Positions 4,901 to 59,625 of a stretch of 64,000 nt of DNA are shown piece after piece. Location of the stretch: positions 56,172,001-56,236,000 of the forward strand of contig NW_027266343.1 in assembly GCF_022045235.1 (NCBI RefSeq), in the 5' to 3' direction. The translations under genes were made by a program, and so were the position numbers. The notes under the pieces were generated by a model. The model made no database searches. It saw only the letters and a program-made list of their open reading frames with translations, and was not told the origin of the DNA. How positions within the stretch are numbered: position 1 is the first letter of the stretch; each line of letters opens with the position of its first letter. Origin of the DNA: Haliotis cracherodii (taxonomy: Eukaryota).

Positions 4901-5370
4901 GATTGTTGGTAACACACTGGCTGATGCTGCCGCAAAAGCAGCACTCAACAAATCTGTGACACCACTTCTTTTACCATACAGTGATTATAAACCTGTCATT
5001 AGATCTTACATCAAAGATCTAATGCAGAAGAAGTGGGACACCCAAGTGGGTATTAATAAATTACATGCAATAAAAGCAAATATCAGTTATACCTACTTGG
5101 GTTGTCAGTCCAGATTTGAAGAGGTCATTTTAAGACAATGTCGTATTGGCCATTCACCTTACACTCATGAATATATTTTAAAAGGTGAGGATCCTCCATT
5201 CTGCATCCCTTGTGATGAAAGAATCACGGTCAAGCATGTCCTGCTTGACTGCATTGATTTTTCCATCACAAGGGATAACTATTTCAAGGTTAAATCTATG
5301 AAGGATCTTTTTAATACTATTAGTTCTCATTTAATTATTGTTTTTTAAAGGAAATTGTACTATTGCATAA
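1967..5370 (+). pseudogene. LINE ORF2 (AP endonuclease, reverse transcriptase, RNase H, C-terminal Cys/His motif), disrupted
   Basis: APE motifs IIQWNC, CLQET, MGDMNGH, GSDHFP. RT motifs FFDLKRAYD, GVPQGSILS, LFVDD, KFLGLIFD. RNase H motifs IFTDGS, FSDSLS, WLPSHVGIVGN. C-terminal CIPCDERITVKHVLLDC. Multiple stops and frameshifts. Confidence 0.93.
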
Positions 5371-5923
5371 ACTTTGAATGATATATTCTGTACATAATCA
5401 GTGTTTTTTTATAATTGGTTGAATAAAATTAATAACTGAGATCGTTAGTGGCTATATCCTCGAAGGGGGTTGAAGTAGTGTAAAATTATTGTCCCCCTAA
5501 GAGGGTATGTAAGACCACGTCTTTCAAAGTATATTTATTTATACCACAGTTTTAATCGTAGCATATGTGTTATTTTAATGTTTGCTAAATTTGTTAATAA
5601 TCGCCAACAGCTGAAGGGATGATGTAAATCCGGCTGGGGTCCATGCAGGTAGCAAAGTGGCTGGCGATCTATAGCTCATTTTTATCTTGTATTGTTTCGT
5701 ATGATGTTATATTTTTATTGCTAACTACTAGTTTTAGACATTATCTGTGATAAATCTAGTTTTTTTACTGTCCTTCGTCGACAGGTTTTTATTTCGTATA
5801 ATTCTGTGTATTATTAATGTACTTCTCGTCACGATATGGCTGAAATACTGCCGATGTGACGTTAAATCTTAACTCACTCACTCATTAAGCATTAAAAGAA
5901 GGTAGAGTACTGTTTTCAATGTA

Positions 5924-6020
5924 GTGAGTGAGTGTGGTGTTACGCCGCTTTTAGCAATATTCCAACAATTTTAGGGTGAAGCACATTTCTGGTGTCCCCA
6001 ACTGTGATATTGCTGGGTTT
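5924..6020. mobile_element. SINE fragments (family 1), tail piece in minus orientation plus a body piece
   Basis: 'agtgagtgagtgtggtgttacgccgcttttagcaatattcc' and 'gtgaagcacatttctggtgtccccaactgtgatattgctgg' match the SINE at 56340-56503. Confidence 0.65.
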
Positions 6021-7909: not shown

Positions 7910-8130
7910 TGGGAACACGGGCCGGGTGACCCAGTCGTCCTTGTCGCTGCTATGATTGTGGGTTAGAATCCCGGTTCACCCCGATTATGTTTCTAGATGT
8001 GTCAGCACAAAACTCATGCTCGTTGAGTTACAATGTGGTAAAGGTCTGAGACCTGCTTCCCGTTGGGCTTTCCTCCCACATTAAGCTGACACGCTGATAT
8101 AACTGGAAATCTGTTCAAAGTGTCAAACCC
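7910..8130 (+). mobile_element. tRNA-derived SINE (family 2), diverged
   Basis: B-box-like 'ggttagaatccc' followed by 'ggttcaccccgattatgtttctagatgtgtcagcac'. Homologous to 23529-23780 and 63713-63930. Confidence 0.65.
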
Positions 8131-10769
8131 ATTATTGTGAATAACATTCACCGTACGCAATGTACGCAAAAAATATTTTCAATGCAAAGTCCACACGCGA
8201 TAGCCATATCCATGGCCTCCATTCAACCAATTCAAATAGTTTGGCGTTGTTCTAAGCCTCCTGGAGGAAGAATAGCTAACTTAAACAATTTGTCATTTTT
8301 ATATGAAGACAATTAGCTTCCTCTAAGGCGTTGATTGTATCACTAACGTGTTTAGGCATACAAAGACACAAATAGAAACCATGTTGACGCCTATGTGACC
8401 TATCTACCATGACACGAGTTGGTTATAAACAGATTGGTGAATAGCCGTTGGCTTGTTGAGATGACGGGCACAGAAAATCCTTGACACCAGTCAGTGCAAC
8501 TGGGTCACCATTGATGTGGAAACAATATGTACATAGACTGAGGTACAACAACAGGAAGACAAATGCCCCTGATGACGGTTGTTTTTTCTCTTTGTTGCGT
8601 GATGTGTGATTGTGTCATGAATTTCTTGCAAAACGTAAAAAGAAAGAACATGTGGTATTTTGTTTCAAGCTGATTAACTAATTATCCTTCTAAGTTAATA
8701 GAATTGTCGATGGTGCGTTTGAGGAGTTAAGGACACAGTTTCCCGTTAAAACATTCTTAAGAACACTCTGCGACGTTAAACAAAATAAAGTTACGAACAT
8801 GCAGACTTGCATCTATTTCATGCGACCTATTTTTGTCTCTTCATCTTTGGTCTCTTCATCTTTGGTCTCATCACAAGATATTTTGGTCACCTTATTCAAA
8901 ACTCTTGAGTGAACCACTGCGGTCTCCGATATAGTAACACTAGTTTACTCTCAGCGATTGCAAATTACATTTCCAAGTTTACGTTAACATGAAGCTATTT
9001 CTATTCAGGCGGAAGACCAGGGGCGCTGTCCAAGATCACACGGAAGATAATTAGCAAACAGTTTTAGGATCAATTAAATTAGGGTTGCCTAATGGTCTCA
9101 GCAAGGTCTAATTTCGATCGACCTTATTTGTTCAAATTTAGACCAACGTTTCTTTGTTTGTCCTCACTGCGTCGGCCATCACTGGACGAGGTAGTGAATT
9201 CTAAACTATACATAGATCTTATTAGGTAAAGATGAGGTTAACAGCAAGGTCCAACGCTACTGGATGGAACCACTACGATTGAGGAGTGAATACAAAGTGC
9301 ATCTTCCATTAAGGGTATACCAAAGTAGAAGTAGCACACTTCGTATTGATTATATAATTAATTGTATGGAAAGAACTCATCGAGGTTACGTATCACTTGA
9401 ACTAATGTGAAATAATTCACATCGAGTCCATACCAAGGATAATGGATGCGATGAATATATTTTGGAGGTCACACCCAACAGATTGGCAAGTTATACAACC
9501 TTTGGGTCTCCCTTGTCATCTATTTCCAATGGCTAACAACCACACAGATCTGTCCTAATGACACATGGCATTAGTCCTGCATTGATCATCATGTATGGTT
9601 TGCGATTTCCGGATACAAGTTCATGTTGAAGAAAAGTAGTTACATATTACAGACACGATTAGTATAATGTACTCGCCCACCTACTCTATAAATATTATAG
9701 TGTGGATGGATGTCTTCCGGTTGGCCTCAAACTGTTACCATTGAACAAATTACAACATAGTTCGACCGCTGTCTTCTTGTATTATTCAGCTAACATTATC
9801 CAAATGTATCCTTTTCAAATATCAATCAGAAAATATCTGAGACATGAATGGATTATTTCATTTGATGGGATTGGTCTACAAGTCACGTGACGTATTTTAA
9901 AGCAAATAGGCAATATTTCAGCCATATCCAGATTTGATCTTATGACATAACATAAAACATAGGTAGTGAAAGAATGAAAACTGTGCATTTTAAGCATGTT
10001 TCGGTTACGTCATATGATTGCGCCATGATGAAGACAACAACATGTCTGACCTTCATGAGCTTTGGCGTATAGGTTAAATTCAATGGCATCGATATCTGTC
10101 CATGATTGCATTGTAAAGCGTTCATATTCCAATGCTGTAGATCCTGAAATTAATCAGAGCCCCCGTCTGGCCTAAAATGTACCATGCGTTTAATGCGAGT
10201 AGCCCTGCCTTTGGATCCCGAAAGCCTAATCAACAAACGATTACACTTAGAATTTTAATTCCATGATATTGTATGCGGTGATAGCAGTTCGACGGAATAA
10301 CATCATTTGCTATCTTAACTTCAACTACATGTTATCAAACGTACATTAAAACACAAGCCAGACATTCCTGATGACGCAAAGTCCTAACTGTAGTCGCCCA
10401 ATGAGCTAGACTGTACCGATGTCTGGACACCAGGCAGCTTGCCAAGGGATAATTTTTACACAGTGAAATTGTCCAGAGATAATGAAAGTTCTATTATTGC
10501 TGGAAGTCTTACAATGGCTATGTCTGTAGCGCGGCACGAGTGTCACCGCATCTGTCGTCACGCTAATCGATCTAAAAAAACAGTACAGCACCTCTTTCTT
10601 ATAGATAGAGGTTTCCCTCATCTGACAATTACACTTCGGTCTAAAAATAATTAAATTCTCGTTAGAGATTACAAGTATAGAATTACCATAGTCTTTAAAA
10701 AATTGTATCATTACTGAGTCTATTCGGGTTCTGCAATGAACTCCGTGGTGGCAAGTGTCCTGTGCACAT

Positions 10770-11629: not shown

Positions 11630-13680
11630 ATGTGGTGTGTGTGTGTAAATGTGTATGTATGTGCGTGTTTACATGTGTGTGTATATGTGTATGTATGTGC
11701 GTGTGTACATGTGTGTTTATGTGTATGTATGTGCGTCTTTACATGTGTGTTTATATGTGTATGTATGTGCGTGTGTAAATGTATATATGTGTATGTATGT
11801 GCGTGTGTACATGTGTGTATATGTGTATGTCTGTGCGTGTTTACATGTGTGTGTATATGTGTATGTATGTGCGTGTGTACATGTGTGTTTATGTGTATGC
11901 ATGTGCGTGTTTACATTTGTGTGTATATGTGTATGTATGTGCGTGTGTACATGTGTGTTTATGTGTATGTATGTGCGTGTTTACATGTGTGTTTATATGT
12001 GTATGTATGTGCGTGTGTACATGTATATATGTGTATGTGTATGTATGTGCGTGTGTACATGTGTGTATATGTGTATGTCTGTGCGTGTGTTTATGTGTAT
12101 GTATGTGCGTGTTTACATGTGTGTGTTTATATGTGTATGTATGTGCGTGTGTACATGTATATATGTGTATGTGTATGTATGTGCGTGTGTACATGTGTGT
12201 ATATGTGTATGGCTGTGCGTGTGTACATGTGTATNNNNNNNNNNNNNNNNNNNNNNNNNNNNNNNNNNNNNNNNNNNNNNNNNNNNNNNNNNNNNNNNNN
12301 NNNNNNNNNNNNNNNNNNNNNNNNNNNNNNNNNNNNNNNNNNNNNNNNNNNNNNNNNNNNNNNNNNNNNNNNNNNNNNNNNNNNNNNNNNNNNNNNNNNN
12401 NNNNNNNNNNNNNNNNNNNNNNNNNNNNNNNNNNNNNNNNNNNNNNNNNNNNNNNNNNNNNNNNNNNNNNNNNNNNNNNNNNNNNNNNNNNNNNNNNNNN
12501 NNNNNNNNNNNNNNNNNNNNNNNNNNNNNNNNNNNNNNNNNNNNNNNNNNNNNNNNNNNNNNNNNNNNNNNNNNNNNNNNNNNNNNNNNNNNNNNNNNNN
12601 NNGTGTTTATGTGTATGTATGTGCGTGTTTACATGTGTGTGTATATGTGTATGTATGTGCGTGTGTACATGTGTGTTTATGTGTATGTATGTGCGTGTTT
12701 ACATGTGTGTTTATATGTGTATGTATGTGCGTGTGTACATGTATATATGTGTATGTGTATGTATGTGCGTGTGTACATGTGTGTATATGTGTATGTCTGT
12801 GAGTGTGTTTATGTGTACGTATGTGCGTGTTTACATGTGTGTGTTTATATGTGTATGTATGTGCATGTGTACATGTATACATGTGTATGTGTGTATATGT
12901 GTATGTCTGTGCGTGTGTACATGTGTATGTATGTGCGTGTGTACATGTGTGTATATGTGTATGTCTGTGCGTGTGTACATGTGTATGTATGTGCGTGTGT
13001 ACATGTGTGTGTATATGTGTATGTATGTGCCTGTGTACATGTATGCGTGTGTATTTGTATGTATGTGCGTGTGTACATGTGTGTATATGTGTATGTCTGT
13101 GCGTGTGTTTATGTGTATGTATGTGCGTGTGTACATGTGTGTGTATATGTGTATGTATGTGCCTGTGTACATGTATGCGTGTGTATTTGTATGTATGTGC
13201 GTGTGTACATGTATGTGTTTATGTGTATGTATGTGCGTGTGTACATTTATGCGTGTGTATTTGTATGTATGTGCGTGTGTATATGTGTATGCATGTGCGT
13301 GTGTACATGTGTTTTTGTGTTTGTATATGTGTATGTATGTATGTGCGTGTGTACATGTGTGTGTATATGTGTATGTATGTGCGTGTGTACATGCATGTGT
13401 GTGTATGTGTATGAATGTGCGTGTGTATGTGTGTATGTATGTGCGTGTGTATGTGTGTATGTATGTGCGTGTGTATATGTGTATGCATGTGCGTGTGTAC
13501 ATGTGTGTTTGTGTACATGTGTGTTTGTGTGTGTGCGTGTGTACATGTGTGTGAGCGTGAACATGTGAGTGTGTATGAATGTGCATGTGTACATGTGTGT
13601 TTGTGTATTTTTGTGTGCGTGTGTACATGTGTGTGTATGTGTATGTATTTGCGTGTACATGTGCGCGCTTGTGCGTGTTT
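11630..13680. repeat. Compound TG/TA-rich micro/minisatellite with an internal assembly gap
   Basis: Recurring unit of the type 'gtgtatgtatgtgcgtgtgtacatgt', almost perfectly alternating purine/pyrimidine. N-gap 12235-12602. Confidence 0.97.
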
Positions 13681-24971: not shown

Positions 24972-26512
24972 GACTCACTTTGTCGTCGTCTTGGAAGAGA
25001 TGTGAAGTTTGTATGCAGTGTCACAACAAAAATACCAGCTGTTTTAACAATGCAATACCTTTTGCAATATTGCGGAAATCTTTTTAAACGTCCCAGGCAC
25101 GCTCCCATATTTTCTTATTTTTACTATTACTAGACATAGAGCTAAACATGGGTCCATGACTAAATGACATCCTATTCATACGCCAAAATCTCCAACATCG
25201 AGTCATATTTATCCCCCATCTGGACACTAAGATTATCTCCATTAAATGTTTAGTAGAATACAGTAATGTGTTTTCAGCTCAGCTCACGCCCTCAGCGATA
25301 TGTTAGACAACCTTCAGGAGTTCATATTACGATAATGCGATCACTTACAAATACTGCAATGTCAGCACAAATTGTTTCACCGTGTAAAACTTCGCAGTGT
25401 GCCCCAATTACGTTTCTTTGTTTGTCAAAAGGCCTACACTACTTGAAGATTTCCTCCCACGTCAAGCTAACATGCCGTGCCAACAAGTATCATCAGAAAA
25501 AACGAACTGCCTTTTTTGTCAAAATAGCAAGTATTATCAATAATTCTTACAGCAGAGTATGTAACATGTGATATAAAAGCACGATTTTCGGTGCATTTTG
25601 AAAACATGTCATTTGTACATTAGGAAGATACAAGTTAAGACAGTAGCACGAGCGGCCAAACATCCAGGACTTGCCTTTTGAACTTCAATACAAATGGATA
25701 TTTGATGAAACTGTATTGCATATTTGTACAGTCATCATCAGTAAAATCAAACGTNNNNNNNNNNNNNNNNNNNNNNNNNNNNNNNNNNNNNNNNNNNNNN
25801 NNNNNNNNNNNNNNNNNNNNNNNNNNNNNNNNNNNNNNNNNNNNNNNNNNNNNNNNNNNNNNNNNNNNNNNNNNNNNNNNNNNNNNNNNNNNNNNNNNNN
25901 NNNNNNNNNNNNNNNNNNNNNNNNNNNNNNNNNNNNNNNNTTAAGCTGATGCAGAAATCTAAGCTATGTGTCGCAGTTTATGTTTCATACTGCGCAGTTA
26001 AAAAACATTGCGTGGTGAGTAACCGTTATAGGTCATCTCTGCTAGTGTCTATTGTGCTCTATAATGGTTGAAAGTTAACAAAATATCTGATTTATATCTC
26101 AAGAAATATGTGCACGTGTTTGTATCATACCTTATGTAAGTTCAGGAATATGTACATCCTTCCTTGTGGACTATTCACAACAAATGATGTTTTCCACACA
26201 ACTCAAGTTATTAACATGTCCTGCCTTCAAAGATTTTTGACTTATAATGACCCTATTCCTCGATGTGAAGACATACAGATGGAGCTTTCAAAAGCAATAT
26301 ATATTCACCCAGTCCACTTGGAACTCATGAGTTCAACCAACGTTGATGTACGCCATATTCATAATTTGTAGTTTATGTTGTACATATATGAAGTAAACAG
26401 ATGAGGGAAATAAGGATCAATGTTACACATATTTTATTGAACTACTCTTGGTTCTACATTAATGGATAGCGATAACGCTAGAGTTGTATCTTCGGCTTGT
26501 GTAAGCAGACTC

Positions 26513-26961
26513 TCAGTAGTAACCGTACCCCATACCTGAAAGAGAACACATAATACACATGTAATTAAATAGGATAAAATCAAGATGTGTTCCTTTCATT
26601 TAACGTGGGTTCAATTAAATGTTCATCTATGTTAATGGATTGACGGCTTAACTTAAGTGTAACGCCAAACATGATATTAATCAGATAACCTACCAATTCC
26701 TTTGCCAAGTCCAATTCCTCCGTACAGTCCTCCCATTCCACCATACAGTCCTCCAAATCCTCCGTACAGTCCTCCCATTCCTGCGTACAGACCTCCCATG
26801 CCTCCGTATAGACCTCCCATGCCTCCGTACAGGCTTCCTATACCATAGCCGCCATAGCCAAGGCCACCAAGGCCTCCGTACATGCCCATTCCGTAGCCAA
26901 TGGGTTTGGCGTAGGTAGCAACAGCCAGACAGGCAACAAGGACGACGATGATCTTCATCAT
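26513..26961 (-). CDS. A1: secreted Gly/Tyr/Met/Leu-rich structural protein, 96 aa; coding exons 26961-26694 and 26535-26513
   Basis: Signal peptide MMKIIVVLVACLAVATYA, then GGLYGGM repeats. GTAGGT donor and TTTCAG acceptor give C-terminus GIGMGYGYY*. AATAAA at 26438-26433. Non-coding exon 1 at ~27779-27734 with a GTGAGT donor. Confidence 0.9.
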
Positions 26962-27114
26962 TTTAAATAGCTGTCATAAAGAAATATTTTGAATTAGCGA
27001 TACATTTAAACAACCAGGTTAATGTATTTGCAAGACGGTATTTCATCCATACAACCGATTACAAAGGTATTATCAATTCAAATTATTATATATGTATTTT
27101 GTTTCTACGTTATT

Positions 27115-27355
27115 ATTTTGTTGTTGTTGTTTAACGCCGCATTCAGCAATATTCCAGCTGTATGACGGCTGTCTGTAATAATGGAGTCTGGACCCGACAA
27201 TCCGGTGATTGACATCATGAGCATCGATCCACTCAATTGGGTAACAATGACTTGCATCAAACAAGTCATCAAGGCTGACCACCCGATCCCGTTAGTCGCC
27301 TCAAGCATACTCGCCTTTTACGGCAAGTGTATTCTGCTCCGGATCGTCACGGCGG
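27115..27355 (-). mobile_element. SINE/bipartite non-autonomous element in A-gene intron 1 (also ~33920-34160, ~40725-40965, ~48075-48315)
   Basis: Minus strand 'gaggcgactaacgggatcgggtggtcag...ctggaatattgctgaatgcggcgttaaacaacaacaac'. Absent from the shorter intron 1 of A6. Confidence 0.8.
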
Positions 27356-27778
27356 ATAATGCACATATACACTATTTGAATGACTGAGAGGGTAAACATT
27401 CACGTGATTCATATATTTATAATACATGTTAATTAATCAGTAATGATATATTGGAAGTTACGCTTGAATGTTTCTTCACATGATCTCCGAATATGGAACA
27501 TTTGGCGAATATCGAAGCCAAATGTTGTACGCGTGATGGTTCAGGATGTAATAACTGAAATCCTTGTTTCAAAAATATTATGTGAACTTTGGCGAACTTT
27601 TTGTTGACGAAAAGAGAGTTGACCGTTGTAAAAAAGTTTGCCGACCTAAACTTAAATCATGGTTGATGTCACCATATGGATAAGCAAGTGATATTACTAC
27701 AACATTTACACAGTGTCAAATACAGATACTCACATTTAGGTACACAGATCGACTATTGGCAAATGCAGGAAAGTTCAG

Positions 27779-28079
27779 TGATGAGGTCACTCACCACACT
27801 CACGTATATATATATACCTGGTGTATTATGTATTACCTGTGATTGATTAGCCTTGGAATGGCTACTTCCGGGTGGGATCAATGACAAACGTCAATTAACT
27901 CTTCCTGAACAAGTAAAGGCGACATAAAATTACCAATTAACATGTGTTTTATCCTTGGGGCTTAAATGTGAGTAGTATTGGGTAACTGTACAAGGAAGAG
28001 TGGACATTGAGCCAGCGGGGTTAGACATTCCCGCAATCCCCGGCCTATATAAGAACACAGAAAAAGGCCGTAATCACCA
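27779..28079. promoter_or_regulatory. Bidirectional promoter of the A1/B1 pair
   Basis: Opposed TATA boxes at 27805-27816 and 28046-28052, each ~30 bp from an Inr-like site. Conserved blocks TGATTGAT 27840, ACTTCCGGGT 27864, CATGTGTTTTATCC 27941, TGTACAAGGAAG 27987. Confidence 0.75.
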
Positions 28080-28341
28080 GTTTCGCACAGCTCCATAGTG
28101 ACAAAGGTTAGTTGACTTGAATTCACATGATTTGTTTAAATTAATGAAGTCGAATTTGTAAATGTATTAAAATGTCAATAAACGAAGGCAAATACTGTTA
28201 ATTACATTTCTACCTCATGAAATTTCAAATCTGTTCAAAGGTTATTTGTTTTACAATAATCGTATTTCAAATAGAATCACTTGATGGTATTAATGTAACG
28301 AAATTAAGAAAGTATATATTCTTTCATGGCAGCTACTGAAA

Positions 28342-29559
28342 ATGATGAAGATTATCGTCGTCCTTGTTGCCTTTCTGGCTGTTGCTGCCTACGCTAAACC
28401 CACTGGCTACGGTATTGGCATGTACGGAGGCCTTGGAGGCCTTGGTGGCCTTGGCTATGGTGGCTATGGAATGGGAGGCCTGTATGGAGGCATGGGAGGC
28501 TTTGGCTATGGTGGCCTGGGAGGTCTGTACGGAGGTATGGGTCTTTACGGAGGCTTGGGAGGCCTGTACGGCGGCATGTATGGAGGAAAATACGGTGGCA
28601 TGTACGGAGGAATTGGACTTGGCAAAGGCATTGGTACGTTTTCACTGTAATTTAATTATGTTACCATGACATTAAGAGACATGTATGGTTGCATGAACAT
28701 TTAATAGACTTGTGTCATTTTTGCATATTGATTTGCTAATTTCAGTAACATGTAATCTGTCTGTAGGTTTGGAGATGGGAGGTGAGGTGTAGGGAGTGGG
28801 GGTGGGGGTGGGGGTGGGGGTGGGGGTGGGGGTAGGGTGGGAAGGTGGGGAGGCCTGTATGGAGGAATAGGCCTTTATCGAGACTTGGGAGGCATGCATT
28901 GAGGCATGTGTGTGTGTTGATCTGATGATAGGTAAATTGTGAGGAATGATCCCACTGTATGGTGGAAGGGGATATGTGAAGGTAAGGGTCTTTCCTGCAT
29001 ATTGATTTGCTAAATTTGAGTAACATGTACAAAGAACATGTATGGCATGCTGGGGTAGTACAGTAACCATGTCACTGACTCTGGCCAGATACAAGTAATA
29101 TTTCTCTCTTTCTAATTTCGCCACAGTTCTATTTAAATATATGCATGTTAGTGAACAATTCAGCCATATAGTGACAATCCAATCTTTCAAGGCACTGTTA
29201 TGACACATTATTGATTAAATCACAGCCATCGATGTACGTCTGTCCTACGACAAGCACGAGGTACTTATAACTGGGAACTAATTTTGACCGGGAATCACCA
29301 TCGAATCGAAGGAAAAAGAAAGAAGGACCATGAGTTTTGTATTGTTCTTTTTAAACTTGATACCATACTTCACATTACGGGAGCAATCTACAATACAGGG
29401 CTGAACCTTCCTTGCTATCAACGTAGTTCTCCCAAGGCGAGTACATGATTTGTTTTGATTAATAGTTGCAATTAACACTATTGTTGGTTAGACAATTACA
29501 TACGCATCCCTTTATTTATATAGAATGTATATTTCACTTCAGGTATGGGATACTATTGA
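28342..29559 (+). CDS. B1: secreted Gly/Tyr/Met/Leu-rich structural protein, 102 aa; coding exons 28342-28633 and 29543-29559
   Basis: Signal peptide MMKIIVVLVAFLAVAAYA, GGLYGGM repeats. GTACGT donor and CTTCAG acceptor give C-terminus GIGMGYY*. AATAAA at 29657. Non-coding exon 1 at ~28078-28106. Confidence 0.9.
28791..28854 (+). repeat. (GGGGGT)n G-quadruplex-forming tract in B-gene intron 2 (also ~35590-35657, ~42344-42388, ~49768-49807)
   Basis: Runs of five G separated by single T; copy number differs between units. Confidence 0.85.
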
Positions 29560-29994
29560 GGTTGGTGAGACGGCGCCTCAGATCTGCAACAACTTCAGCG
29601 CTGATCAAACAAACCTCTCAATGCTTCACGGAAGACAAATACTTTCTTCTCGGATCAATAAAGGACATTTCTACAATGCTTATTATTTTGTTGTTAGTTT
29701 CCGTGTTCCAATCATATAATTGTGACCCTTAATTTGCCTTTTACGCCTAATATAATCTTTTTTCTGTGGATAATCGAGAATAATTATCATCTGGCGTTGA
29801 CGTATTATATGTCACCCAAATCACTCACTGTAAGTTGGAGGCCAAATTGCATATTGTTTGTCTTGATACTGTCCAGAAGTAAAGAAATACTTACTTCCTT
29901 ACCAAGTATCATATCGACACAAATTCTGATCAACGTTTACCATAAACATGTCACCCTTTGCTGTAACGCCTCACACCAACTGAAGACCCTGGTT

Positions 29995-33282: not shown

Positions 33283-33764
33283 TCAGTAGTAACCGTACCC
33301 CATACCTGAAAGAGAACACATAATACACATGTAATTAAATAGGATAAAATCAAGATGTGTTCCTTTCATTTAACGTGGGTTCAATTAAATGTTAATCTAT
33401 GTTGATGGATTGACGGCTTAACTTGAGTGTAACGCCAAACATGATATTAATCAGATAACCTACCAATTCCTTTGCCAAGTCCAATTCCTCCGTACATTCC
33501 ACCGTACAGTCCTCCCATTCCACCATACAGTCCTCCAAATCCTCCGTACAGTCCTCCCATTCCTCCGTACAGACCTCCCATGCCTCCGTACAGACCTCCC
33601 ATGCCTCCGTACAGACCTCCCATGCCTCCGTACAGGCCTCCTATACCATAGCCGCCATAGCCATGGCCACCAAGGCCTCCGTACATGCCCATTCCGTAGC
33701 CAATGGGTTTGGCGTAGGTAGCAACAGCCAGACAGGCAACAAGGACGACGATGATCTTCATCAT
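33283..33764 (-). CDS. A2: secreted Gly/Tyr/Met/Leu-rich protein, 107 aa; coding exons 33764-33464 and 33305-33283
   Basis: Same signal peptide, splice sites and GMGYGYY* end as A1. Confidence 0.9.
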
Positions 33765-34559
33765 TTTAAATAGCTGTCATAAAGAAATATTTTGAATTAG
33801 CGATACATTTAAACAACCAGGTTAATGTATTTGCAAGACGGTATTTCATCCATACAACCGATTACAAAGGTATTATCAATTCAAATTATTATATATGTAT
33901 TTTGTTTCTACGTTATTATTTTGTTGTTGTTGTTTAACGGCGCATTCAGCAATATTCCAGCTGTATGACGGCTGTCTGTAATAATGGAGTCTGGACCCGA
34001 CAATCCAGTGATTGACATCATGAGCATCGATCCACTCAATTGGGTAACGATGACATGCATCAAACAAGTCATCAAGGCTGACCACCCGATCCCGTTAGTC
34101 GCCTCAAGCATACTCGCCTTTTACGGCAAGTGTATTCTGCTCCGGATCGTCACGGCGGATAATGCACATATACACTATTTGAATGACTGAGAGGGTAAAC
34201 ATTCACGTGATTCATATATTTATAATACATGTTCATTAATCAGTAATGATATATTGGAAGTTACACTTGAATGTGTTCACATTATCTCCGAATATGGAAC
34301 ATTTGGCGAATATCGAAGCCAAATGTTGTACGCGTGATGGTTCAGGATGTAATAACTGAAATCCATGTTTCAAAAATATTTTTGTTGACGAAAAGAGAGT
34401 TGACCGTTGTAAAAAAATTTGCCGACCTAAACTTAAATCATGGTTGATGTCACCATATGGATAAGCAAGTGATATTACTACAACATTTACACAGTGTCAA
34501 ATACAGATACTCACATTTAGGTACACAGATCGACGATTTGCAAACGCAGGAAAGTTCAG

Positions 34560-34857
34560 TGATGTGGTCACTCACCACACTCACGTATATATACACCTGG
34601 TGTTATGTATTACCTGTGATTGATTAGCCTTGGAATGGCTACTTCCGGGTGGGATCAATGACAAACGTCAATTAACTCTTCCGGAACAAGTAAAGGCGAC
34701 ATAAAATTACCAATTAACATGTGTTTTATCCTTGGGGCTTAAATGTGAGTAGTATTGGGTAACTGTACAAGGAAGAGTGGACATTGAGCCAGCGGGGTTA
34801 GACATTCCCGCAATCCCCGGTTAATATAAGAACACAGAAAAAGGCCGTAATCACCAG
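34560..34857. promoter_or_regulatory. Bidirectional promoter of A2/B2
   Basis: TATATATA at 34586-34593, TAATATAAG at ~34822-34830, and the same conserved internal blocks. Confidence 0.7.
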
Positions 34858-35118
34858 TTTCGCACAGCTCCATAGTGACAAAGGTTAGTTGACTTGAATT
34901 CACATGATTTGTTTAAATTAATGAAGTCGAATTTGTAAATGTATCAAAATGTCAATAAACGAAGGCAAATACTGTTAATTACATTTCTACCTCATGAAAT
35001 TTCAAATCTGTTCAAAGGTTATTTGTTTTACAATAATCATATTTCAAATAGAATCACTTGATGGTATTAATGTAACGAAATTAAGAAAGTATATATTCTT
35101 TCATGGCAGCTACTGAAA

Positions 35119-36363
35119 ATGATGAAGATTATCGTCGTCCTTGTTGCCTTTCTGGCTGTTGCTGCCTACGCTAAACCCACTGGCTACGGTATTGGCATGT
35201 ACGGAGGCCTTGGAGGCCTTGGTGGCCTTGGCTATGGTGGCTATGGAATGGGAGGCCTGTATGGAGGCATGGGAGGCTTTGGCTATGGTGGCCTGGGAGG
35301 TCTGTACGGAGGTATGGGTCTTTACGGAGGCTTGGGAGGCCTGTACGGAGGAATGGGAGGCCTGTACGGCGGCATGTATGTAGGAAAATACGGTGGCATG
35401 TACGGAGGAATTGGACTTGGCAAAGGAATTGGTACGTTTTCACTGTAATTTAATTATGTTACCATGACATTAAGAGACATGTATGGTTGCATGAACATTT
35501 AATAGACTTGTGTCATTTTTGCATATTGATTTGCTAATTTCAGTAACATGTAATCTGTCTGTAGGTTTGGAGATGGGAGGTGAGGTGTAGGGAGTGGGGG
35601 TGGGGGTGGGGGTGGGGGTGGGGGTGGGGGTAGGGGTAGGGTGGGAAGGTGGGGAGGCCTGTATGGAGGAATAGGCCTTTATCGAGACTTGGGAGGCATG
35701 CATTGAGGCATGTGTGTGTGTTGATCTGATGATAGGTAAATTGTGAGGAATGATCCCACTGTATGGTGGAAGGGGATATGTGAAGGTAAGGGTCTTTCCT
35801 GCATATTGATTTGCTAAATTTGAGTAACATGTACAAAGAACATGTATGGCATGCTGGGGTAGTACAGTAACCATGTCACTGACTCTGGCCAGATACAAGT
35901 AATATTTCTCTCTTTCTAATTTCGCCACAGTTCTATTTAAATATATGCATGTTAGTGAACAATTCAGCCATATAGTGACAATCCAATCTTTCAAGGCACT
36001 GTTATGACACATTATTGATTAAATCACATCCATCGATGTACGTCTGTCCTACGACAAGCACGAGGTACTTATAACTGGGAACTAATTTTGACCGGGAATC
36101 ACCATCGAATCGAAGGAAAAAGAAAGAAGGACCATGAGTTTTGTATTGTTCTTTTTAAACTTGATACCATACTTCACATTACGGGAGCAATCTACAATAC
36201 AGGGCTGAACCTTCCTTGCTATCAACGTAGTTCTCCCAAGGCGAGTACATGATTTGTTTTGATTAATAGTTGCAATTAACACTATTGTTGGTTAGACAAT
36301 TACATACGCATCCCTTTATTTATATAGAATGTATATTTCACTTCAGGTATGGGATACTATTGA
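35119..36363 (+). CDS. B2: secreted Gly/Tyr/Met/Leu-rich protein, 109 aa; coding exons 35119-35431 and 36347-36363
   Basis: Same structure as B1, with one extra 21-nt repeat. Confidence 0.9.
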
Positions 36364-40088: not shown

Positions 40089-40570
40089 TCAGTAGTAACC
40101 GTACCCCATACCTGAAAGAGAACACATAATACACATGTAATTAAATAGGATAAAATCAAGATGTGTTCCTTTCATTTAACGTGGGTTCAATTAAATGTTA
40201 ATCTATGTTGATGGATTGACGGCTTAACTTGAGTGTAACGCCAAACATGATATTAATCAGATAACCTACCAATTCCTTTGCCAAGTCCAATTCCTCCGTA
40301 CATTCCACCGTACAGTCCTCCCATTCCACCATACAGTCCTCCAAATCCTCCGTACAGTCCTCCCATTCCTCCGTACAGACCTCCCATGCCTCCGTACAGA
40401 CCTCCCATGCCTCCGTACAGACCTCCCATGCCTCCGTACAGGCCTCCTATACCATAGCCGCCATAGCCATGGCCACCAAGGCCTCCGTACATGCCCATTC
40501 CGTAGCCAATGGGTTTGGCGTAGGTAGCAACAGCCAGACAGGCAACAAGGACGACGATGATCTTCATCAT
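40089..40570 (-). CDS. A3: secreted Gly/Tyr/Met/Leu-rich protein, 107 aa; coding exons 40570-40270 and 40111-40089
   Basis: Protein identical to A2; splice signals conserved. Confidence 0.88.
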
Positions 40571-41384
40571 TTTAAATAGCTGTCATAAAGAAATATTTTG
40601 AATTAGCGATACATTTAAACAACCAGGTTAATGTATTTGCAAGACGGTATTTCATCCATACAACCGATTACAAAGGTATTATCAATTCAAATTATTATAT
40701 ATGTATTTTGTTTCTACGTTATTATTTTGTTGTTGTTGTTTAACGGCGCATTCAGCAATATTCCAGCTGTATGACGGCTGTCTGTAATAATGGAGTCTGG
40801 ACCCGACAATCCAGTGATTGACATCATGAGCATCGATCCACTCAATTGGGTAACGATGACATGCATCAAACAAGTCATCAAGGCTGACCACCCGATCCCG
40901 TTAGTCGCCTCAAGCATACTCGCCTTTTACGGCAAGTGTATTCTGCTCCGGATCGTCACGGCGGATAATGCACATATACACTATTTGAATGACTGAGAGG
41001 GTAAACATTCACGTGATTCATATATTTATAATACATGTTCATTAATCAGTAATGATATATTGGAAGTTACACTTGAATGTGTTCACATTATCTCCGAATA
41101 TGGAACATTTGGCGAATATCGAAGCCAAATGTTGTACGCGTGATGGTTCAGGATGTAATAACTGAAATCCATGTTTCAAAAATATTATGTGAACTTTGGC
41201 GAACTTTTTGTTGACGAAAAGAGAGTTGACCGTTGTAAAAAAATTTGCCGACCTAAACTTAAATCATGGTTGATGTCACCATATGGATAAGCAAGTGATA
41301 TTACTACAACATTTACACAGTGTCAAATACAGATACTCACATTTAGGTACACAGATTGACTATTGGCAAATGCAGGAAAGTTCA

Positions 41385-41683
41385 GTGATGAGGTCACTCA
41401 CCACACTCACGTATATATACACCTGGTGTTATGTATTACCTGTGATTGATTAGCCTTGGAATGGCTACTTCCGGGTGGGATCAATGACAAACGTCAATTA
41501 ACTCTTCCGGAACAAGTAAAGGCGACATAAAATTACCAATTAACATCTGTTTTATCCTTGGGGCTTAAATGTGAGTAGTATTGGGTAACTGTACAAGGAA
41601 GAGTGGACATTGAGCCAGCGGGGTTAGACATTCCCGCAATCCCCGGTTAATATAAGAACACAGAAAAAGGCCGTAATCACCAG
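41385..41683. promoter_or_regulatory. Bidirectional promoter of A3/B3
   Basis: TATATATA at 41412-41419, TAATATAAG at ~41648-41656, and the conserved blocks. Confidence 0.7.
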
Positions 41684-41868
41684 TTTCGCACAGCTCCATA
41701 GTGACAAAGGTTAGTTGACTTGAATTCACATGATTTGTTTAAATTAATGAAGTCGAATTTGTAAATGTATTAAAATGTCAATAAACGAAGGCAAATACTG
41801 TTAATTACATTTCTACCTCATGTAACGAAATTAAGAAAGTATATATTCTTTCATGGCAGCTACTGAAA

Positions 41869-43254
41869 ATGATGAAGATTATCGTCGTCCTTGTTGCCTT
41901 TCTGGCTGTTGCTGCCTACGCCAAACCCACTGGCTACGGTATTGGCATGTACGGAGGCCTTGGAGGCCTTGGCTATGGCGGCTATGGAATGGCGGGCCTG
42001 TATGGGGGCATGGGAGGTCTGTACGGAGGCATGGGAGGCTTTGGCTATGGTGGCCTGGGAGGTCTGTACGGAGGTATGGGTCTTTACGGAGGCTTGGGAG
42101 GCCTGTATGGAGGAATGGGAGGCCTGTACGGCGGCATGTATGGAGGAATTGGACTTGGCAAAGGAATTGGTACGTTTTCACTTTTTTCACGTTTTCACTG
42201 TAATTTAATTATGTTAACATGGCATTAAGAGACATGTATTGTTGCATGAACATTTAATAAACTTGTGTCATTTTTGCGTATTGATTTGCTAATTTCAGTA
42301 ACATATAATCTGTCTGTAGGTTTGGAGATGGGAGGTGAGGTGTAGGGGGTGGGGTGGGGGTAGGGGTAGGGTGGGTAGGTGGGGGTGGCTTGAGGTTTGT
42401 TCGCAATCTTCTACTCTCAATACATACAATGATTGCCGTTGTTGCCTGTCTGACTGTTGACTGCTACCTACGACAAACCCATTGGCTTCGGTTTGGACGT
42501 GCACAGAGGCCTTGGTGGCCTTGGCTATTTAGGCTAAGGTAAGGGAGGCCTGTATGAAGGAATAGGCCTTTATCGAGGCGTGGGAGGCATGCATTGAGGC
42601 ATGTGTGTGTGTTGATCTGATGATAGGTAAATTGTGAAGAATGAACCCACTGTATGGTGGAACGGGATATGTGAAAGTAAGGGTCTTTTCTGCATATTGA
42701 TTTGCTAAATTTGAGTAACATGTACAAAGAACATGTATGGCATGCTGGGGTAGTACAGTAACCATGTCACTGACTCTGGCCAGATACAAGTAATATTTCT
42801 CTCTTTCTAATTTCGCCACAGTTCTATTTAAATATATGCATGTTAGTGAACACTTCAGCCATATAGTGACAATCCAATCTTTCAAGGCACTGTTATGACA
42901 CATTATTGATTAAATCACATCCATCGATGTACGTCGGTCCTACGACAAGCACGAGGTACTTATAATTGGGAACTAATTTTGACCGGGAATCCCCATCGAA
43001 TCGAAGGAAAAAGAAAGAAGGACCATGAGTTTTGTATTGTTCTTTTTAAACTTGATAACATACTTCACATTACGGGAGCAATCTACAATACAGGGCTGAA
43101 CCTTCCTTGCTATCAACGTAGTTCTTCCAATGCGAGTACATGATTTGTTTTGATTAATAGTTGCAATTAACACTATTGTTGGTTAGACAATTACATACGC
43201 ATCCCTTTATTTATATAGAATGTATTTTTCACTTCAGGTATGGGATACTATTGA
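41869..43254 (+). CDS. B3: secreted Gly/Tyr/Met/Leu-rich protein, 105 aa; coding exons 41869-42169 and 43238-43254
   Basis: Signal peptide, GGLYGGM repeats, conserved splice sites, GMGYY* end. Confidence 0.9.
42429..42605 (+). pseudogene. Decayed duplicate of the main coding exon nested in B3 intron 2
   Basis: MIAVVACLTV..., then after a frameshift KPIGFGLDVHRGLGGLGYLG*GKGGLYEGIGLY..., homologous to the A/B exon 2. Confidence 0.8.
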
Positions 43255-47459: not shown

Positions 47460-47920
47460 TCAGTAGTAACCGTACCCCATACCTGAAAGAGAACACATAA
47501 TACACATGTAATTAAATAGGATAAAATCAAGATGTGTTCCTTTCATTTAACGTGGGTTCAATTAAATGTTAATCTATGTTGATGGATTGACGGCTTAACT
47601 TGAGTGTAACGCCAAACATGATATTAATCAGATAACCTACCAATTCCTTTGCCAAGTCCAATTCCTCCGTACTTTCCACCGTACAGTCCTCCCATTCCAC
47701 CATACAGTCCTCCAAATCCTCCGTACAGTCCTCCCATTCCTCCGTACAGACCTCCCATGCCTCCGTACAGACCTCCCATGCCTCCGTACAGGCCTCCTAT
47801 ACCATAGCCGCCATAGCCAAGGCCACCAAGGCCTCCGTACATGCCCATTCCGTAGCCAATGGGTTTGGCGTAGGTAGCAACAGCCAGACAGGCAACAAGG
47901 ACGACGATGATCTTCATCAT
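47460..47920 (-). CDS. A4: secreted Gly/Tyr/Met/Leu-rich protein, 100 aa; coding exons 47920-47641 and 47482-47460
   Basis: Same structure as A1-A3. Confidence 0.9.
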
Positions 47921-48734
47921 TTTAAATAGCTGTCATAAAGAAATATTTTGAATTAGCGATACATTTAAACAACCAGGTTAATGTATTTGCAAGACGGTAT
48001 TTCATCCATACAACCGATTACAAAGGTATTATCAATTCAAATTATTATATATGTATTTTGTTTCTACGTTATTATTTTGTTGTTGTTGTTTAACGGCGCA
48101 TTCAGCAATATTCCAGCTGTATGACGGCTGTCTGTAATAATGGAGTCTGGACCCGACAATCCAGTGATTGACATCATGAGCATCGATCCACTCAATTGGG
48201 TAACGATGACATGCATCAAACAAGTCATCAAGGCTGACCACCCGATCCCGTTAGTCGCCTCAAGCATACTCGCCTTTTACGGCAAGTGTATTCTGCTCCG
48301 GATCGTCACGGCGGATAATGCACATATACACTATTTGAATGACTGAGAGGGTAAACATTCACGTGATTCATATATTTATAATACATGTTCATTAATCAGT
48401 AATGATATATTGGAAGTTACGCTTGAATGTTTTCACATGATCTCCGAATATGGAACATTTGGCGAATATCGAAGCCAAATGTTGTACGCGTGATGGTTCA
48501 GGATGTAATAACTGAATCCATGTTTCAAAAATATTATGTGAACTTTGGCGAACTTTTTGTTGACGAAAAGAGAGTTGACCGTTGTAAAAATGTTTGCCGA
48601 CCTAAACTTAAATCATGGTTGATGTCACCATATGGATAAGCAAGTGATATTACTACAACATTTACACAGTGTCAAATACAGATACTCACATTTAGGTACA
48701 CAGATCGACGATTTGCAAACGCAGGAAAGTTCAG

Positions 48735-49032
48735 TGATGTGGTCACTCACCACACTCACGTATATATACACCTGGTGTTATGTATTACCTGTGATTGATT
48801 AGCCTTGGAATGGCTACTTCCGGGTGGGATCAATGACAAACGTCAATTAACTCTTCCGGAACAAGTAAAGGCGACATAAAATTACCAATTAACATGTGTT
48901 TTATCCTTGGGGCTTAAATGTGAGTAGTATTGGGTAACTGTACAAGGAAGAGTGGACATTGAGCCAGCGGGGTTAGACATTCCCGCAATCCCCGGCCAAT
49001 ATATGAACACAGAAAAAGGCCGTAATCACCAG
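48735..49032. promoter_or_regulatory. Bidirectional promoter of A4/B4 (B-side TATA altered)
   Basis: TATATATA at 48761-48768; the B side reads CAATATATG at ~48997-49005. Confidence 0.65.
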
Positions 49033-49293
49033 TTTCGCACAGCTCCATAGTGACAAGGGTTAGTTGACTTGAATTCACATGATTTGTTTAAATTAATGAA
49101 GTCGAATTTGTAAATGTATTAAAATGTCAATAAACGAAGGCAAATACTGTTAATTACATTTCTACCTCATGAAATTTCAAATCTGTTCAAAGGTTATTTG
49201 TTTTACAATAATCGTATCTCAAATAGAATCACTTGATGGTATTAATGTAACGAAATTAAGAAAGTATATATTCTTTCATGGCAGCTACTGAAA

Positions 49294-50673
49294 ATGATGA
49301 AGATTATCGTCGTCCTTGCTGCCTGTCTGGCTGTTGCTGCCTACGCCAAACCCACTGGCTACGGTATTGGAATGTATGGAGGCCTTGGCTATGGTGGCTA
49401 TGGAATGGGAGGCCTGTATGGAGGCATGGGAGGTCTGTACGGAGGCATGGGAGGCTTTGGCTATGGTGGCCTGGGAGGTCTGTACGGAGGTATGGGTCTT
49501 TACGGAGGCTTGGGAGGCCTGTACGGAGGAATGGGAGGCCTGTACGGCGGCATGTATGGAGGAAAATACGGTGGCATGTACGGAGGAATTGGACTTGGCA
49601 AAGGAATTGGTACGTTTTCACTGTAATTTAATTATGTTACCATGACATTAAGAGACATGTATAGTTGCATGAACATTTAATAGACTTGTGTCATTTTTGC
49701 ATATTGATTTGCTAATTTCAGTAACATGTAATCTGTCTGTAGGTTTGGAGATGGGAGGTGAGGTGTAGGGGAGTGGGGGTGGGGGTAGGGCTGGTAGGTG
49801 GGGGTGGCTTGAGGTTTGTTCGCAATCTTCTACTCTCAATACATACAATGATTACCGTTGTTGCCTGTCTGACTGTTGCTATCTACGACAAACCCATTGG
49901 CTTCGGTTTGGACGTGCACAGAGGCCTTGGGGGCCTTGGCTATTTAGGCTAAGGTAAGGGAGGCCTGTATGGAGGAATAGGTCTTTATCGAGGCGTGGGT
50001 GGCATGCATTGAGGCATGTGTGTGTGTTGATCTGATGATAGGTAAATTGTGAAGAATGATCCCACTGTATGGTGGAACGGGATATGTGAAAGTAAGGGTC
50101 TTTTCTGTATATTGATTTGCTAAATTTGAGTAACATGTACAAAGAACATGTATGGCATGCTGGGGTAGTACAGTAACCATGTCACTGACTCTGGCCAGAT
50201 ACAAGTAATATTTCTCTCTTTCTAATTTCGCCACAGTTCTATTTACATATGAGCATGTTAGTGAACACTTCAGCCATATAGTGACAATCCAATCTTTCAA
50301 GGCACTGTTATGACACATTATTGATTAAATCACATCCATCGATGTACGCCGGTCCTACGACAAACACGAGGTACTTATAATTGGGAACTAATTTTGACCG
50401 GGAATCCCCATCGAATCGAAGGAAAAAGAGAGAAGGACCATGAGTTTTGTATTGTTCTTTTTAAACTTGATAACATACTTCACATTACGGGAGCAATCTA
50501 CAATACAGGGCTGAACCTTCCTTGCTATCAACGTAGTTCTTCCAATGCGAGTACATGATTTGTTTTGATTGATAGTTGCAATTAACACTTTTGTTGGTTA
50601 GACAATTACATACGCACGCATCCCTTTATTTATATAGAATGTATTTTTCACTTCAGGTATGGGATACTATTGA
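49294..50673 (+). CDS. B4: secreted Gly/Tyr/Met/Leu-rich protein, 110 aa; coding exons 49294-49609 and 50657-50673
   Basis: Signal peptide MMKIIVVLAACLAVAAYA, repeats, conserved splice sites. Confidence 0.9.
49848..50020 (+). pseudogene. Decayed duplicate of the main coding exon nested in B4 intron 2
   Basis: MITVVACLTVAIYDKPIGFGLDVHRGLGGLGYLG* followed by degenerate GGLYGG sequence. Confidence 0.8.
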
Positions 50674-53311: not shown

Positions 53312-54383
53312 ATGATGAAGATTATCGTCGTCCTTGTTGCCTGTCTGGCTGTTGCTGCCTACGCCAATCCCACAGGCTACGGTATTGGCATGTACGGAGG
53401 CCTTGGTGGCCTTGGCTATGGCGGCTATGGTATGGGAGGCCTTTACGGAGGTATGGGAGGTCTGTACGGAGGTATGGGAGGTCTGTACGGAGGTATGGGT
53501 CTTTACGGAGGCTTGGGAGGCCTGTATGGAGGAATGGGAGGCCTGTATGGAGGAATGGGAGGCCTGTACAGCGGCATGTATGGATGAAAATACGGCGGCA
53601 TGTACGGGGGAATTGGATTTGGAAAAGGAATTGGTAAGTTTCTTGAGTACACTGTATATTGTACACCAGAATAATTGGCTATGTCATGGGCATGAACGTG
53701 TGCCTTGTTGACCAGATACCAGTGACACGCGACAGTTATATTTGATTAGTCACGACGAAAGGATCGTGTTGCAACCAGGTGAAACAAGTATTGGAGTCAC
53801 ATGTTTACATTCACACCCAGTTCTGGAATGTATTCAGATCTTGGTGTATGTAATTCTTTAAATATCTTTCCCCCATCTTCATATTGTTATAGGAATCACA
53901 TTCAGACTAGGCTCCATGTCTGCCGTTGCTGTCGTGGCAGTTATGAATGAGTTAGTGAATGTTATTGAAAATTTGACGACATTTGACGACAATCCTGTAG
54001 TTCAAGGCTTTAGCAACATTATTAATGTAGGAAGTTCGGCTGTTATCAAACATTATTGGCTAGAGCACAATAGCCCTTACGACAAACCACAGGGTACTTG
54101 CAACTTGGAAATAGTTTTTCCTGGGATAGTTCGCATCGATTCGAAAGGAAACATACAAGTACCGCGCCATTTGTATTGTTACTTTTAATCTTTGATAAAA
54201 TCCGGGCACCATACGGGATTATTCTACTATATAGGGCTGAACCGTTCTTGATATCACCGTAATTATTCCAAGTCAAGTAAACAATTTCTTTTGAATAGTA
54301 GTTGCAATTTACGACATATTGAATAAACACTCTTTTATTTATATCATATGTGTCTTTTTACTTCAGGCATTGGATACTATTGA
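53312..54383 (+). pseudogene. B5: diverged B-type gene with an in-frame nonsense codon (GGA>TGA at 53585-53587); exons 53312-53633 and 54367-54383
   Basis: Reads ...GMYG*KYGGMYGGIGFGKGIG|IGYY*. Splice sites are intact. It would be 112 aa if read through and 91 aa if truncated. Confidence 0.75.
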
Positions 54384-55329
54384 GGTTAGTGAGATGGCGT
54401 CTCTCATCTGCAACAGTGTCAGCGCAGATCAAACAACACCTCCACAATATCATGGCCAACAAATACTCACCTCTTGGATAAACAAATCACACTTCTAACA
54501 TGCTAATAATCTATTTTCTCATTAGTTTCCAGTTTTCCATTTATATAATTTACACCGCTCTTATGCCTTCTACCACCTATAGAATCTGGTTTGGCAAATA
54601 ATCGAGGCTGTTTATCCTCTGGCGTTGGCTACTCACTGTTAGCTGCAGTCTAAATTGCATGTTCTTATCAACGTGTACCATAAACATTTTACCTTTGCAA
54701 GTAAACGTCGCATCGACTAAAGACATAGTTTTGAATAGGCATGCATCAGTTAATCAAAATAAGGTCAAGGTCCAGGTCAAGGGTACATGAAAAGTGTAAA
54801 GATCACAGCAGGGAAATGGGTAATAAAAATGTTTATTAGAAACGATTTCGTAAGAGGATATTAGGAAAAAAACAGACGAAAACATTGACATAAGCAGAGT
54901 GTTGAGATATGAGTCGTGTAGATAATACATTTTAGTACATTTTCTGCAACAGGATGATAGAAATCACGGGTAAACACAAACACAATAAGGTCTTTGAGTA
55001 AATAAAAGCGACAAAACCCTTTGCAAATATATATATATATATATAAAAGCAAAGTCGCCAAAAGCAGAGTCGATTGTACGATTCGGATTATATCATGATC
55101 ATGTAATTTATTAGGAATCACTATCAAATAGTGATCATACCAGGTATCAATTTTTTAAGTTCTGTTAATTTACCAATTTATGGCATGTATTCTGTGAAGT
55201 ATACAACTGCTTGACGGGGCACCCTAATTACGATGAAAACCCAGTACGTTGCATATGCTACCACAAACCCCTTTCCATAATATCGACTATATCATGAGCA
55301 TGTATTATGAATCACCATTACACTGGGAT

Positions 55330-58952: not shown

Positions 58953-59625
58953 TCAATAGTGACCGTATCCCATGCCTAAAAGAGACAACAAAATACACAA
59001 TTATAAGATAACAACGCACTTGAGAAAAATACTTCTGCCTAAGGAGTTCCCCCAAAACACAAATTGTTTAATAAAAGTCTGACAGAAGCCGTTATTTAGA
59101 AGCCGACATTGCATGTATTGTGAGAAGAAAATAATGTGTCGCTAATCGCACCCTCCCTTCGCAACCCCTTCACAAATGTTACATGTTACTAGAATCAGCA
59201 AAATCAATATGCCAAAATCACAAACGTGACTTCCCTTTTCGAATTTCTGATGTCCATGCAATCACACTGGTCTCCCATTGCAATTGGATCAGTCTCATAA
59301 TATACACAGACAACTTACCAATTCCTTTGCCGAGTCCAATTCCTCCGTACATGCCACCGTACAGTCCTCCCATTCCTCCGTACAGGCCTCCCAAGCCTCC
59401 GTAAAGACCCATACCTCCATACAGACCTCCCATGCCTCCGTACAGACCTCCCATGCCTCCGTACAGGCCTCCAATGCCACCATACAGGCCTCCCATACCT
59501 AAGCCGCCATAGCCACCATAGCCAAGGCCACCAAGGCCTCCGTACATGCCAATACCGTAGCCAATGGGTTTGGCGTAGGCAGAAACAGCCAGACAGGCAA
59601 TAAGGACGACGATAATCTTCATCAT
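58953..59625 (-). CDS. A6: diverged A-type secreted Gly/Tyr/Met/Leu-rich protein, 109 aa; coding exons 59625-59319 and 58975-58953
   Basis: Signal peptide MMKIIVVLIACLAVSAYA. GTAAGT donor and TTTAG acceptor give GMGYGHY*. AATAAA at 58888-58883. Exon-1 donor GTGAGT at 60020-60015. TATATAAA at 60100-60093. Confidence 0.9.

Follow-up and report, generated by a model that had tools for sequence, protein, structure and literature searches.

We analysed a stretch of 64,000 nucleotides of the Haliotis cracherodii genome (contig NW_027266343.1, positions 56,172,001 to 56,236,000; hereafter the window), in which two small Gly-rich genes, A on the minus strand and B on the plus strand, lie head to head at 26513..29559, the limits being the final stop-codon bases of gene A (26513) and gene B (29559), respectively. 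They belong to a genome-wide family of at least 114 loci in nine subfamilies, and the constant design of this family is a conserved last exon ending in Tyr, rather than the regular Met-containing heptad GGLYGGM that an initial annotation of the same DNA had singled out as distinctive. We regard it as reasonably probable that the family supplies a secreted bulk precursor of the organic layer of the young shell, cross-linked through tyrosine.

Structure and splicing of the A/B gene pair

Exon 2 of gene A (26694..26970, minus strand) carries 9 nt of untranslated region (UTR), the ATG at 26961, a predicted signal peptide of 18 residues and a Gly/Tyr/Leu/Met body, and closes with a phase-1 donor. 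Intron 2 (26536..26693, 158 nt, GT..AG) separates it from the last exon (26433..26535), in which 23 coding nt (26535-26513) give MGYGYY and the stop codon, followed by the 3′-UTR and an AATAAA at 26438-26433; the H. rubra protein P0001 has the same tail. In gene B (plus strand), exon 2 (28333..28633) likewise has 9 nt of UTR, the ATG at 28342, a predicted signal peptide, a Gly-rich body and a phase-1 donor, and is followed by a 909-nt intron 2 (28634..29542, GT..AG) and a last exon (29543..29662) with 17 coding nt (29543-29559) for MGYY and stop, a 3′-UTR and AATAAA at 29657. Upstream, the sequence suggests for gene A a TATA box at about 27816-27805 and a non-coding exon 1 at about 27785-27734 with donor GTGAGT (27734..27816, minus strand), and for gene B a TATA box at 28046 and a non-coding exon 1 at about 28075-28106 with donor GTTAGT (28046..28106, plus strand), so that the two TATA boxes stand head to head about 230 bp apart (27805-28053).

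Splicing was checked over positions 26200-29800 with contigs from four of 18 public runs, which come from related organisms and were taken as RNA by guess. Contigs cover exon 2 of gene A in all four runs and, in two of them (X1, at a depth of 2683, and X5), leave out precisely the 158-nt intron, whose ends read CT..AC; a further X1 contig, at a depth of 60, crosses the intron unspliced. In run X3, four contigs have a B-type last exon fused to the end of exon 2, and the tails of A and B recur at the ends of gene models from H. rubra and H. asinina. The Tyr tail therefore comes, as had been proposed, from a separate exon, whose coding part including the stop codon is 23 nt in A (MGYGYY, or MGYGHY in one copy) and 17 nt in B (MGYY); the phase-1 GT donor follows GKGI. 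Because spliced, tail-bearing contigs are present, the retention of intron 2 with loss of the YY tail, the outcome named in advance as fatal to the proposal, is not what was found. The term ‘micro-exon’ has nevertheless to be given up: in all nine intact copies of the window an AATAAA lies 87-114 nt into the last exon, which is thus an ordinary terminal exon of some 110-135 nt with a short coding part. A dispersed repeat resembling a short interspersed nuclear element occupies 27124-27330, within intron 1 of gene A, and is very abundant in all runs examined.

Both genes are real and have the composition first ascribed to them. With cleavage assumed after residue 18 and the signal peptide judged by eye, the mature chains of the nine intact copies (out of ten in the window) are 78-92 residues long and contain 50-53% Gly, 15-17% Tyr, 10-13% Leu and 8-10% Met, with two or three Lys and no Asp, Glu, Cys or Arg. 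They also have no Trp, one Pro, at most one Ala and at most one His, giving a net charge of +2 to +3 and an isoelectric point (pI) of about 9; over the family the pI ranges from 8.2 to 9.4, i.e. mildly basic. The statement that the chains are built from GGLYGGM does not stand, as the exact heptad occurs two to six times per chain and makes up 18-47% of it (18% and 25% in the two genes at 26513..29559); a periodicity at lag 7 is clear in gene A and is not clear in gene B at 28342.

A Tyr-ending last exon with variable repeats across the genome

Sequence patterns and paralogue searches of the same genome, in which gene A alone as query gave 93 matches, located at least 114 related loci, some of them broken: 10 of type A/B, 63 C, 30 D, 5 E, 1 F, 2 G, 1 H and 2 I, the sequence figures for C and D resting on the 27 C and 7 D open frames that were read. 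In all nine subfamilies a YAG acceptor directly precedes the ATG, K/E-P comes after a signal-like peptide, the body contains 40-63% Gly, and a phase-1 intron lies near the end, after which the last exon adds two to seven residues ending in Tyr. The tails themselves differ (MGYGYY, MGYY, IGYY, IGYGYY, HY, YY, YGYY, MY, RY and GY), and their Tyr and stop codons vary synonymously among the subfamilies. When acceptors were scored blind to the encoded peptide, the short Tyr tail ranked first in 10 of 14 genes and second, second, second and fourth in the others, compared with a Tyr tail from 5 of 83 other strong acceptors (which may include those four genes); the score is ad hoc, with hand-chosen donors and non-independent paralogues.

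The repeats, by contrast, are not constant. A and C have heptads, D a nonamer, E and H triplet-based units, F a 4-mer and I an 11-mer, with subfamily periods of 3, 3.5 and 4. Met accounts for 9% of A but for 0% of the mature chain in E and I, and GGLYGG is followed by Met in 44 of 51 cases in A/B, in 64 of 184 in C and in none of 47 in D. As the H. asinina homologue is also without the exact heptad, the Met heptad cannot be upheld as the distinctive design, while the importance of the terminal Tyr and a secreted structural role have gained support, from the Tyr exon in nine subfamilies and from a likely relative expressed at the larval shell edge (see below). The 5′ non-repetitive DNA is homologous across subfamilies A to G (z 4.5-27) and weakly so to H and I (z 2-6).

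Most loci lie in tandem arrays with a spacing of about 4 kb, in which the copies are near-identical rather than diversified. Type C has 29 loci at C80:51.27-51.40 Mb, 30 at C2:36.71-36.84 Mb and four scattered ones, the 30 type D loci are on C1 and the five type E loci on C18. The C and D stretches that were read consist mostly of single-gene head-to-tail units, unlike the A/B pairs. An assembly artefact is unlikely to lie behind the arrays, because there are differences between the copies and one H. asinina contig also bears consecutive family models. Silkmoth chorion genes and the high-glycine-tyrosine hair KAPs also form clusters of small Gly/Tyr-rich structural genes, and chorion loci contain head-to-head gene pairs on a short shared promoter; this likeness is one of analogy only, the abalone family having neither the conserved chorion central domain nor Cys.

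Six-frame scanning of the window gave ten such genes, namely four A/B pairs repeating head to head as units of about 6.8 kb, a diverged A and a broken B. Besides the pair described above, these are the pairs at 33283..36363 (ATG 33764 minus, 35119 plus), 40089..43254 (ATG 40570 minus, 41869 plus) and 47460..50673 (ATG 47920 minus, 49294 plus), all with both genes intact. A B-like copy at 53312..54384 (plus strand) is interrupted ahead of the tail by an in-frame TGA (53585-53587), and its AATAAA is changed, although its last exon persists at 54368; without the TGA it would end in GFGKGI and then IGYY, and it is likely to be a pseudogene. Hence the claim that every copy ends in GKGI and a Tyr tail is right for nine of the ten and fails for this one. 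The diverged A copy (58953..59625, minus strand) is intact, with a 343-nt intron and the tail MGYGHY; beside it, at 60700-60900 on the plus strand, is a decayed Gly-rich remnant that is likely to be its dead B partner. The window also contains a 64-bp minisatellite of 5.9 copies (60915-61291) and a long GT-rich satellite (11640-13663).

Elsewhere in the genome, the intervals between the E genes contain tandem satellites (C18:9201600-9216400 and 9226700-9227200) that stem from the coding repeat of E and are frameshifted. At C80:51.03 Mb (5235-5594 and 7920-8372 of the stretch read) two diverged C copies stand head to head; they show Asp, Cys and Arg substitutions and a terminal YW. At C80:47.57 Mb (5336-5938 of the stretch read, minus strand) lies an open frame of 201 residues with a Gly/Leu/Cys/Glu repeat, in which no signal peptide was seen and which may be a satellite.

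Homologues and comparable Gly/Tyr-rich proteins

Wherever their organism is named, the homologues that share this signal peptide and tail belong to Haliotis. The H. rubra protein XP_046565582.1 (‘ctenidin-1-like’) and the H. asinina proteins XP_067657837-849 (‘glycine-rich protein-like’) have the same signal peptide and the same tails and are true homologues, bearing automatic names only; the H. asinina form differs from A/B in having no exact GGLYGGM and 5% Met. A profile search of 1.84 billion proteins gave 265 matches, of which the best 150 were considered. Among the proteins retrieved, the signal or tail motif occurred only in Haliotis proteins and in the database entries P0016 and P0008 (the latter a fragment of 81 residues), and 12 other profile matches that were read were alike in repeat period alone. 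P0016, of 346 residues, results from gene prediction having run three D-type genes together. An E query found no abalone protein among its 22 matches, Pfam gave no family for any of seven family proteins, and the best ESM Atlas score, 0.80, was to arthropod cuticle-like clusters, which we take as a lead only. The literature searched, mostly open-access papers, yielded no account of the family or of how many copies and what gene structure it has, nor any paper assigning the family another role, on which the initial annotation had said its structural reading would founder.

The automatic names ‘ctenidin-1-like’ and ‘neuropeptide-like protein 31’ raise the alternative of a Gly-rich antimicrobial or immune effector family, with which the small size, the signal peptide, the mildly basic pI, the multiple copies and the presence of cover in some runs only would all agree. 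The charge does not: the typical Gly-rich antimicrobial peptide is strongly cationic, and the Arg-rich armadillidins reach a pI of 11.4-12.1 (PMC7017220), compared with two or three Lys and no Arg in 80-90 residues here. Since the signal or tail was found in no non-abalone protein among those retrieved, the names appear to reflect composition, and the near-identity of the array copies also speaks against an effector role. Predicted structure points both ways. In a single-sequence model A is helical (predicted local distance difference test score, pLDDT, 71.7; predicted template modelling score 0.45), and in A, C, G and I the non-Gly residues share one helical face; the corresponding model of D, with its period of 3, is unstructured (pLDDT 40.1). 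Because any mixture of three- and four-residue Gly units gives a period of 3.5, and given the low score of D, we keep the A helix as a lead and not as a fold; a predicted complex of four copies of the H. rubra homologue scored 0.02 and gave no answer. Overall we consider the antimicrobial alternative improbable.

The shematrins and KRMPs of Pinctada resemble the family in being secreted Gly-Tyr-rich mantle proteins with a Tyr end and in being multigene (PMC3896809, PMC4897951), and the Gly-Tyr-rich repeats and terminal Tyr by which shematrins are defined (PMC3896809) are both present in the family. Identity with either group was nevertheless rejected: the A/B tails are uncharged and have no basic end of the RKKKY, RRKKY or RRRKY type (just one I gene ends in RRY), and there is no Lys/Trp domain after the signal peptide as in KRMPs (PMC3896809), the chains having no Trp and two or three Lys. 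Protein searches found no sequence homology to shematrins or KRMPs. Suckerins and the squid beak HBPs share GGLY and GGY motifs and about 15% Tyr; the A/B chains are far smaller and without GHGXY repeats, and they are not suckerins, as they lack the Pro-flanked, Ala/His-rich M1 beta-module alternating with a Gly/Tyr M2 module that defines these proteins (PMC11931252). The A/B chains do fall within the SilkSlider class of secreted proteins with at least 25% Gly in a window of 80 residues (PMC4944945), with 50-53% Gly over 78-92 residues, the signal peptide being judged by eye and the chain of gene 26961 being two residues short of the 80. In Lymnaea, the basic, secreted, Gly/Tyr/Leu-rich proteins Lstag-sfc-6, -7 and -8 are produced next to a peroxidase in the periostracal groove and have been proposed as peroxidase/dityrosine substrates of the periostracum (PMC6007483); they too have Tyr flanked by Gly, but they are Asn-rich, no homology was detected, and cross-linking there is likewise a proposal. 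From these parallels the family is likely to function like the Gly/Tyr proteins of the mantle edge.

The nearest described protein is Has-tsfgr1 of H. asinina (GenBank DW986319; PMC2034539), which has 114 residues, consisting of a 17-residue signal peptide, 15 further residues, 11 Gly-rich units that are mostly GGYGLGL, and the tail GYKGY, with a Gly content above 52%. By our arithmetic (17 + 15 + 11 × 7 + 5 = 114) Has-tsfgr1 would be a heptad polymer. It is expressed in the trochophore along the edge at which the shell field expands, in the veliger at the mantle edge, and in the outer mantle fold of juveniles of 1-2 mm; in larger animals its expression is gone. Jackson et al. suggested that it acts as an elastomer or a template, and pointed out that the terminal Tyr, common to shematrins, is possibly functional. 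Like the family members, it is an abalone protein with a signal, a short leader, Gly/Leu/Tyr repeats and a short K-G tail ending in Tyr; it differs from A/B, on the published description, in its repeat and tail and in that no Met is mentioned, and it is treated there as one gene, without gene structure or copy number. The signal is 17 residues long in D, E, F and G and 18 in A, B and C (cleavage judged from alignment), and the mature-chain Gly content, 50-53% in A/B, is 58% in E, to be compared with that described for Has-tsfgr1. The motif GGYGLGL, through which subfamily E was first located, has seven matches in the genome, six of them in E, against one for a control; it is absent from A/B and occurs in one or two copies per E gene, compared with the 11 units described. 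An exact GYKGY tail pattern has no match in the genome, a K-G...Y ending being the family pattern. Taking these likenesses together, it is quite likely that Has-tsfgr1 belongs to this superfamily. Two other H. asinina candidates, Has-GRBP and Has-CL10Contig2, were rejected as relatives on their described repeats.

A proposed role in the young shell

The secretion of the family products is predicted from their signal-like N-termini, and expression at the shell edge is likely by analogy with Has-tsfgr1. The chains would be released in quantity along the edge where the larval and early juvenile shell is growing; there, their uncharged, flexible Gly backbones may self-associate through Tyr, Leu and Met, and oxidative coupling of Tyr by peroxidase or tyrosinase would then harden the layer, with the conserved terminal Tyr as the likely preferred linking site. 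Gene amplification would be a way to make much protein fast. Cross-linking is put forward because of the model for Lymnaea sfc-6 to -8 and because GGLY modules of suckerins form dityrosine with peroxidase in vitro (PMC11931252).

Could the same chains instead be the precursor of some other tough material, such as the larval operculum, the radula membrane, an egg coat, or a settlement adhesive or mucus, hardened by the same Tyr chemistry? Composition and amplification would suit any bulk extracellular material, the GGLY and GGY motifs are found again in proteins of the squid sucker ring and beak (PMC11931252), and the subfamilies, with their different repeat periods, may serve different organs. 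The sole described likely relative, however, is restricted to shell-forming cells (PMC2034539), and subfamily E, its candidate counterpart, tracks A/B across the runs. E exons have a spliced end in X1 and a summed depth of 10^4-10^5 in X1 and X2, falling below 100 in X5; the A/B pattern matches this, while the dispersed repeat is equally deep in all four runs, which we regard as a coarse hint. As X1 and X2 had been found with gene A and not with E, the co-occurrence is informative. Run X16 had no cover over the E exons and was not used as evidence. We therefore think another material unlikely, if less so than an antimicrobial function.

Several observations weigh against a tyrosine-cross-linked precursor of the young shell. 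We found none of the family motifs in the peptides and sequences of 27 supplementary files of the adult H. laevigata shell proteome (PMC6003135), a study of adult shells that were hypochlorite-washed or sand-blasted and digested with trypsin only. This absence fits a larval or periostracal site and also fits a non-shell site, including the other materials named above. (Supplementary file 11 of that study holds a different family of small secreted Gly/Tyr proteins, comp87110, which ends in GKGYYG.) A doubled GGYGLGL motif and a motif-plus-tail pattern each have no match in the genome, and subfamily E ends in GHY or RHY, not GYKGY, so that orthology with Has-tsfgr1 is unproven. In two diverged C copies the last residues are YW. 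Expression is poorly measured by summed contig depth, just three or four runs were compared each time, and the runs, guessed to be RNA, have no tissue or stage label. Cross-linking in this family is put forward by analogy, and 3,4-dihydroxyphenylalanine (DOPA), dityrosine, Lys cross-links and coacervation, all raised in the initial annotation, are putative.

Covalent tanning might also be dispensed with, the shell-edge protein acting as a template or confinement for the first mineral in the form of a coacervate or an amphipathic surface film. Such a film would be in keeping with the near absence of charge and the high Tyr content, with the elastomeric or template role suggested by Jackson et al. 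(PMC2034539), and with the squid proteins, in which Tyr-Tyr stacking drives coacervation of beak proteins and suckerins do without covalent links (PMC11931252). The abalone chains, however, have no His switch, with at most one His, and no Ala/His beta-module, and a strictly terminal Tyr on its own exon in nine subfamilies is more in keeping with recognition or a reaction at a specific site than with stacking in bulk; we judge this the least probable of the alternatives, and very unlikely.

Beyond the cross-linked precursor that we favour, a more speculative and rather doubtful extension is that the superfamily is the missing bulk polymer of the abalone’s first organic shell layer, with more than 100 copies so that few shell-field cells could deposit it within hours, interchangeable Gly repeats of period 3, 3.5 and 4, and the terminal-Tyr exon as a dedicated cross-linking or docking end.

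Proteins of this general kind are already known; this family stands out by its scale and its likely tie to larval shell formation, by which an expression result of 2007 on Has-tsfgr1 would be linked to a gene system of more than 100 loci. Current annotation misses family genes or fuses them, as in P0016, and gives them misleading antimicrobial names. For materials work, the family offers a minimal natural Gly/Tyr polymer. Little is known about the proteins of the shell skin of gastropod larvae and of the periostracum, in part because shells are bleached ahead of proteomic analysis and because chains of this kind offer few sites to trypsin; with a family that can be named and counted, and whose tail peptides can be predicted, the question of the shell skin becomes directly testable.

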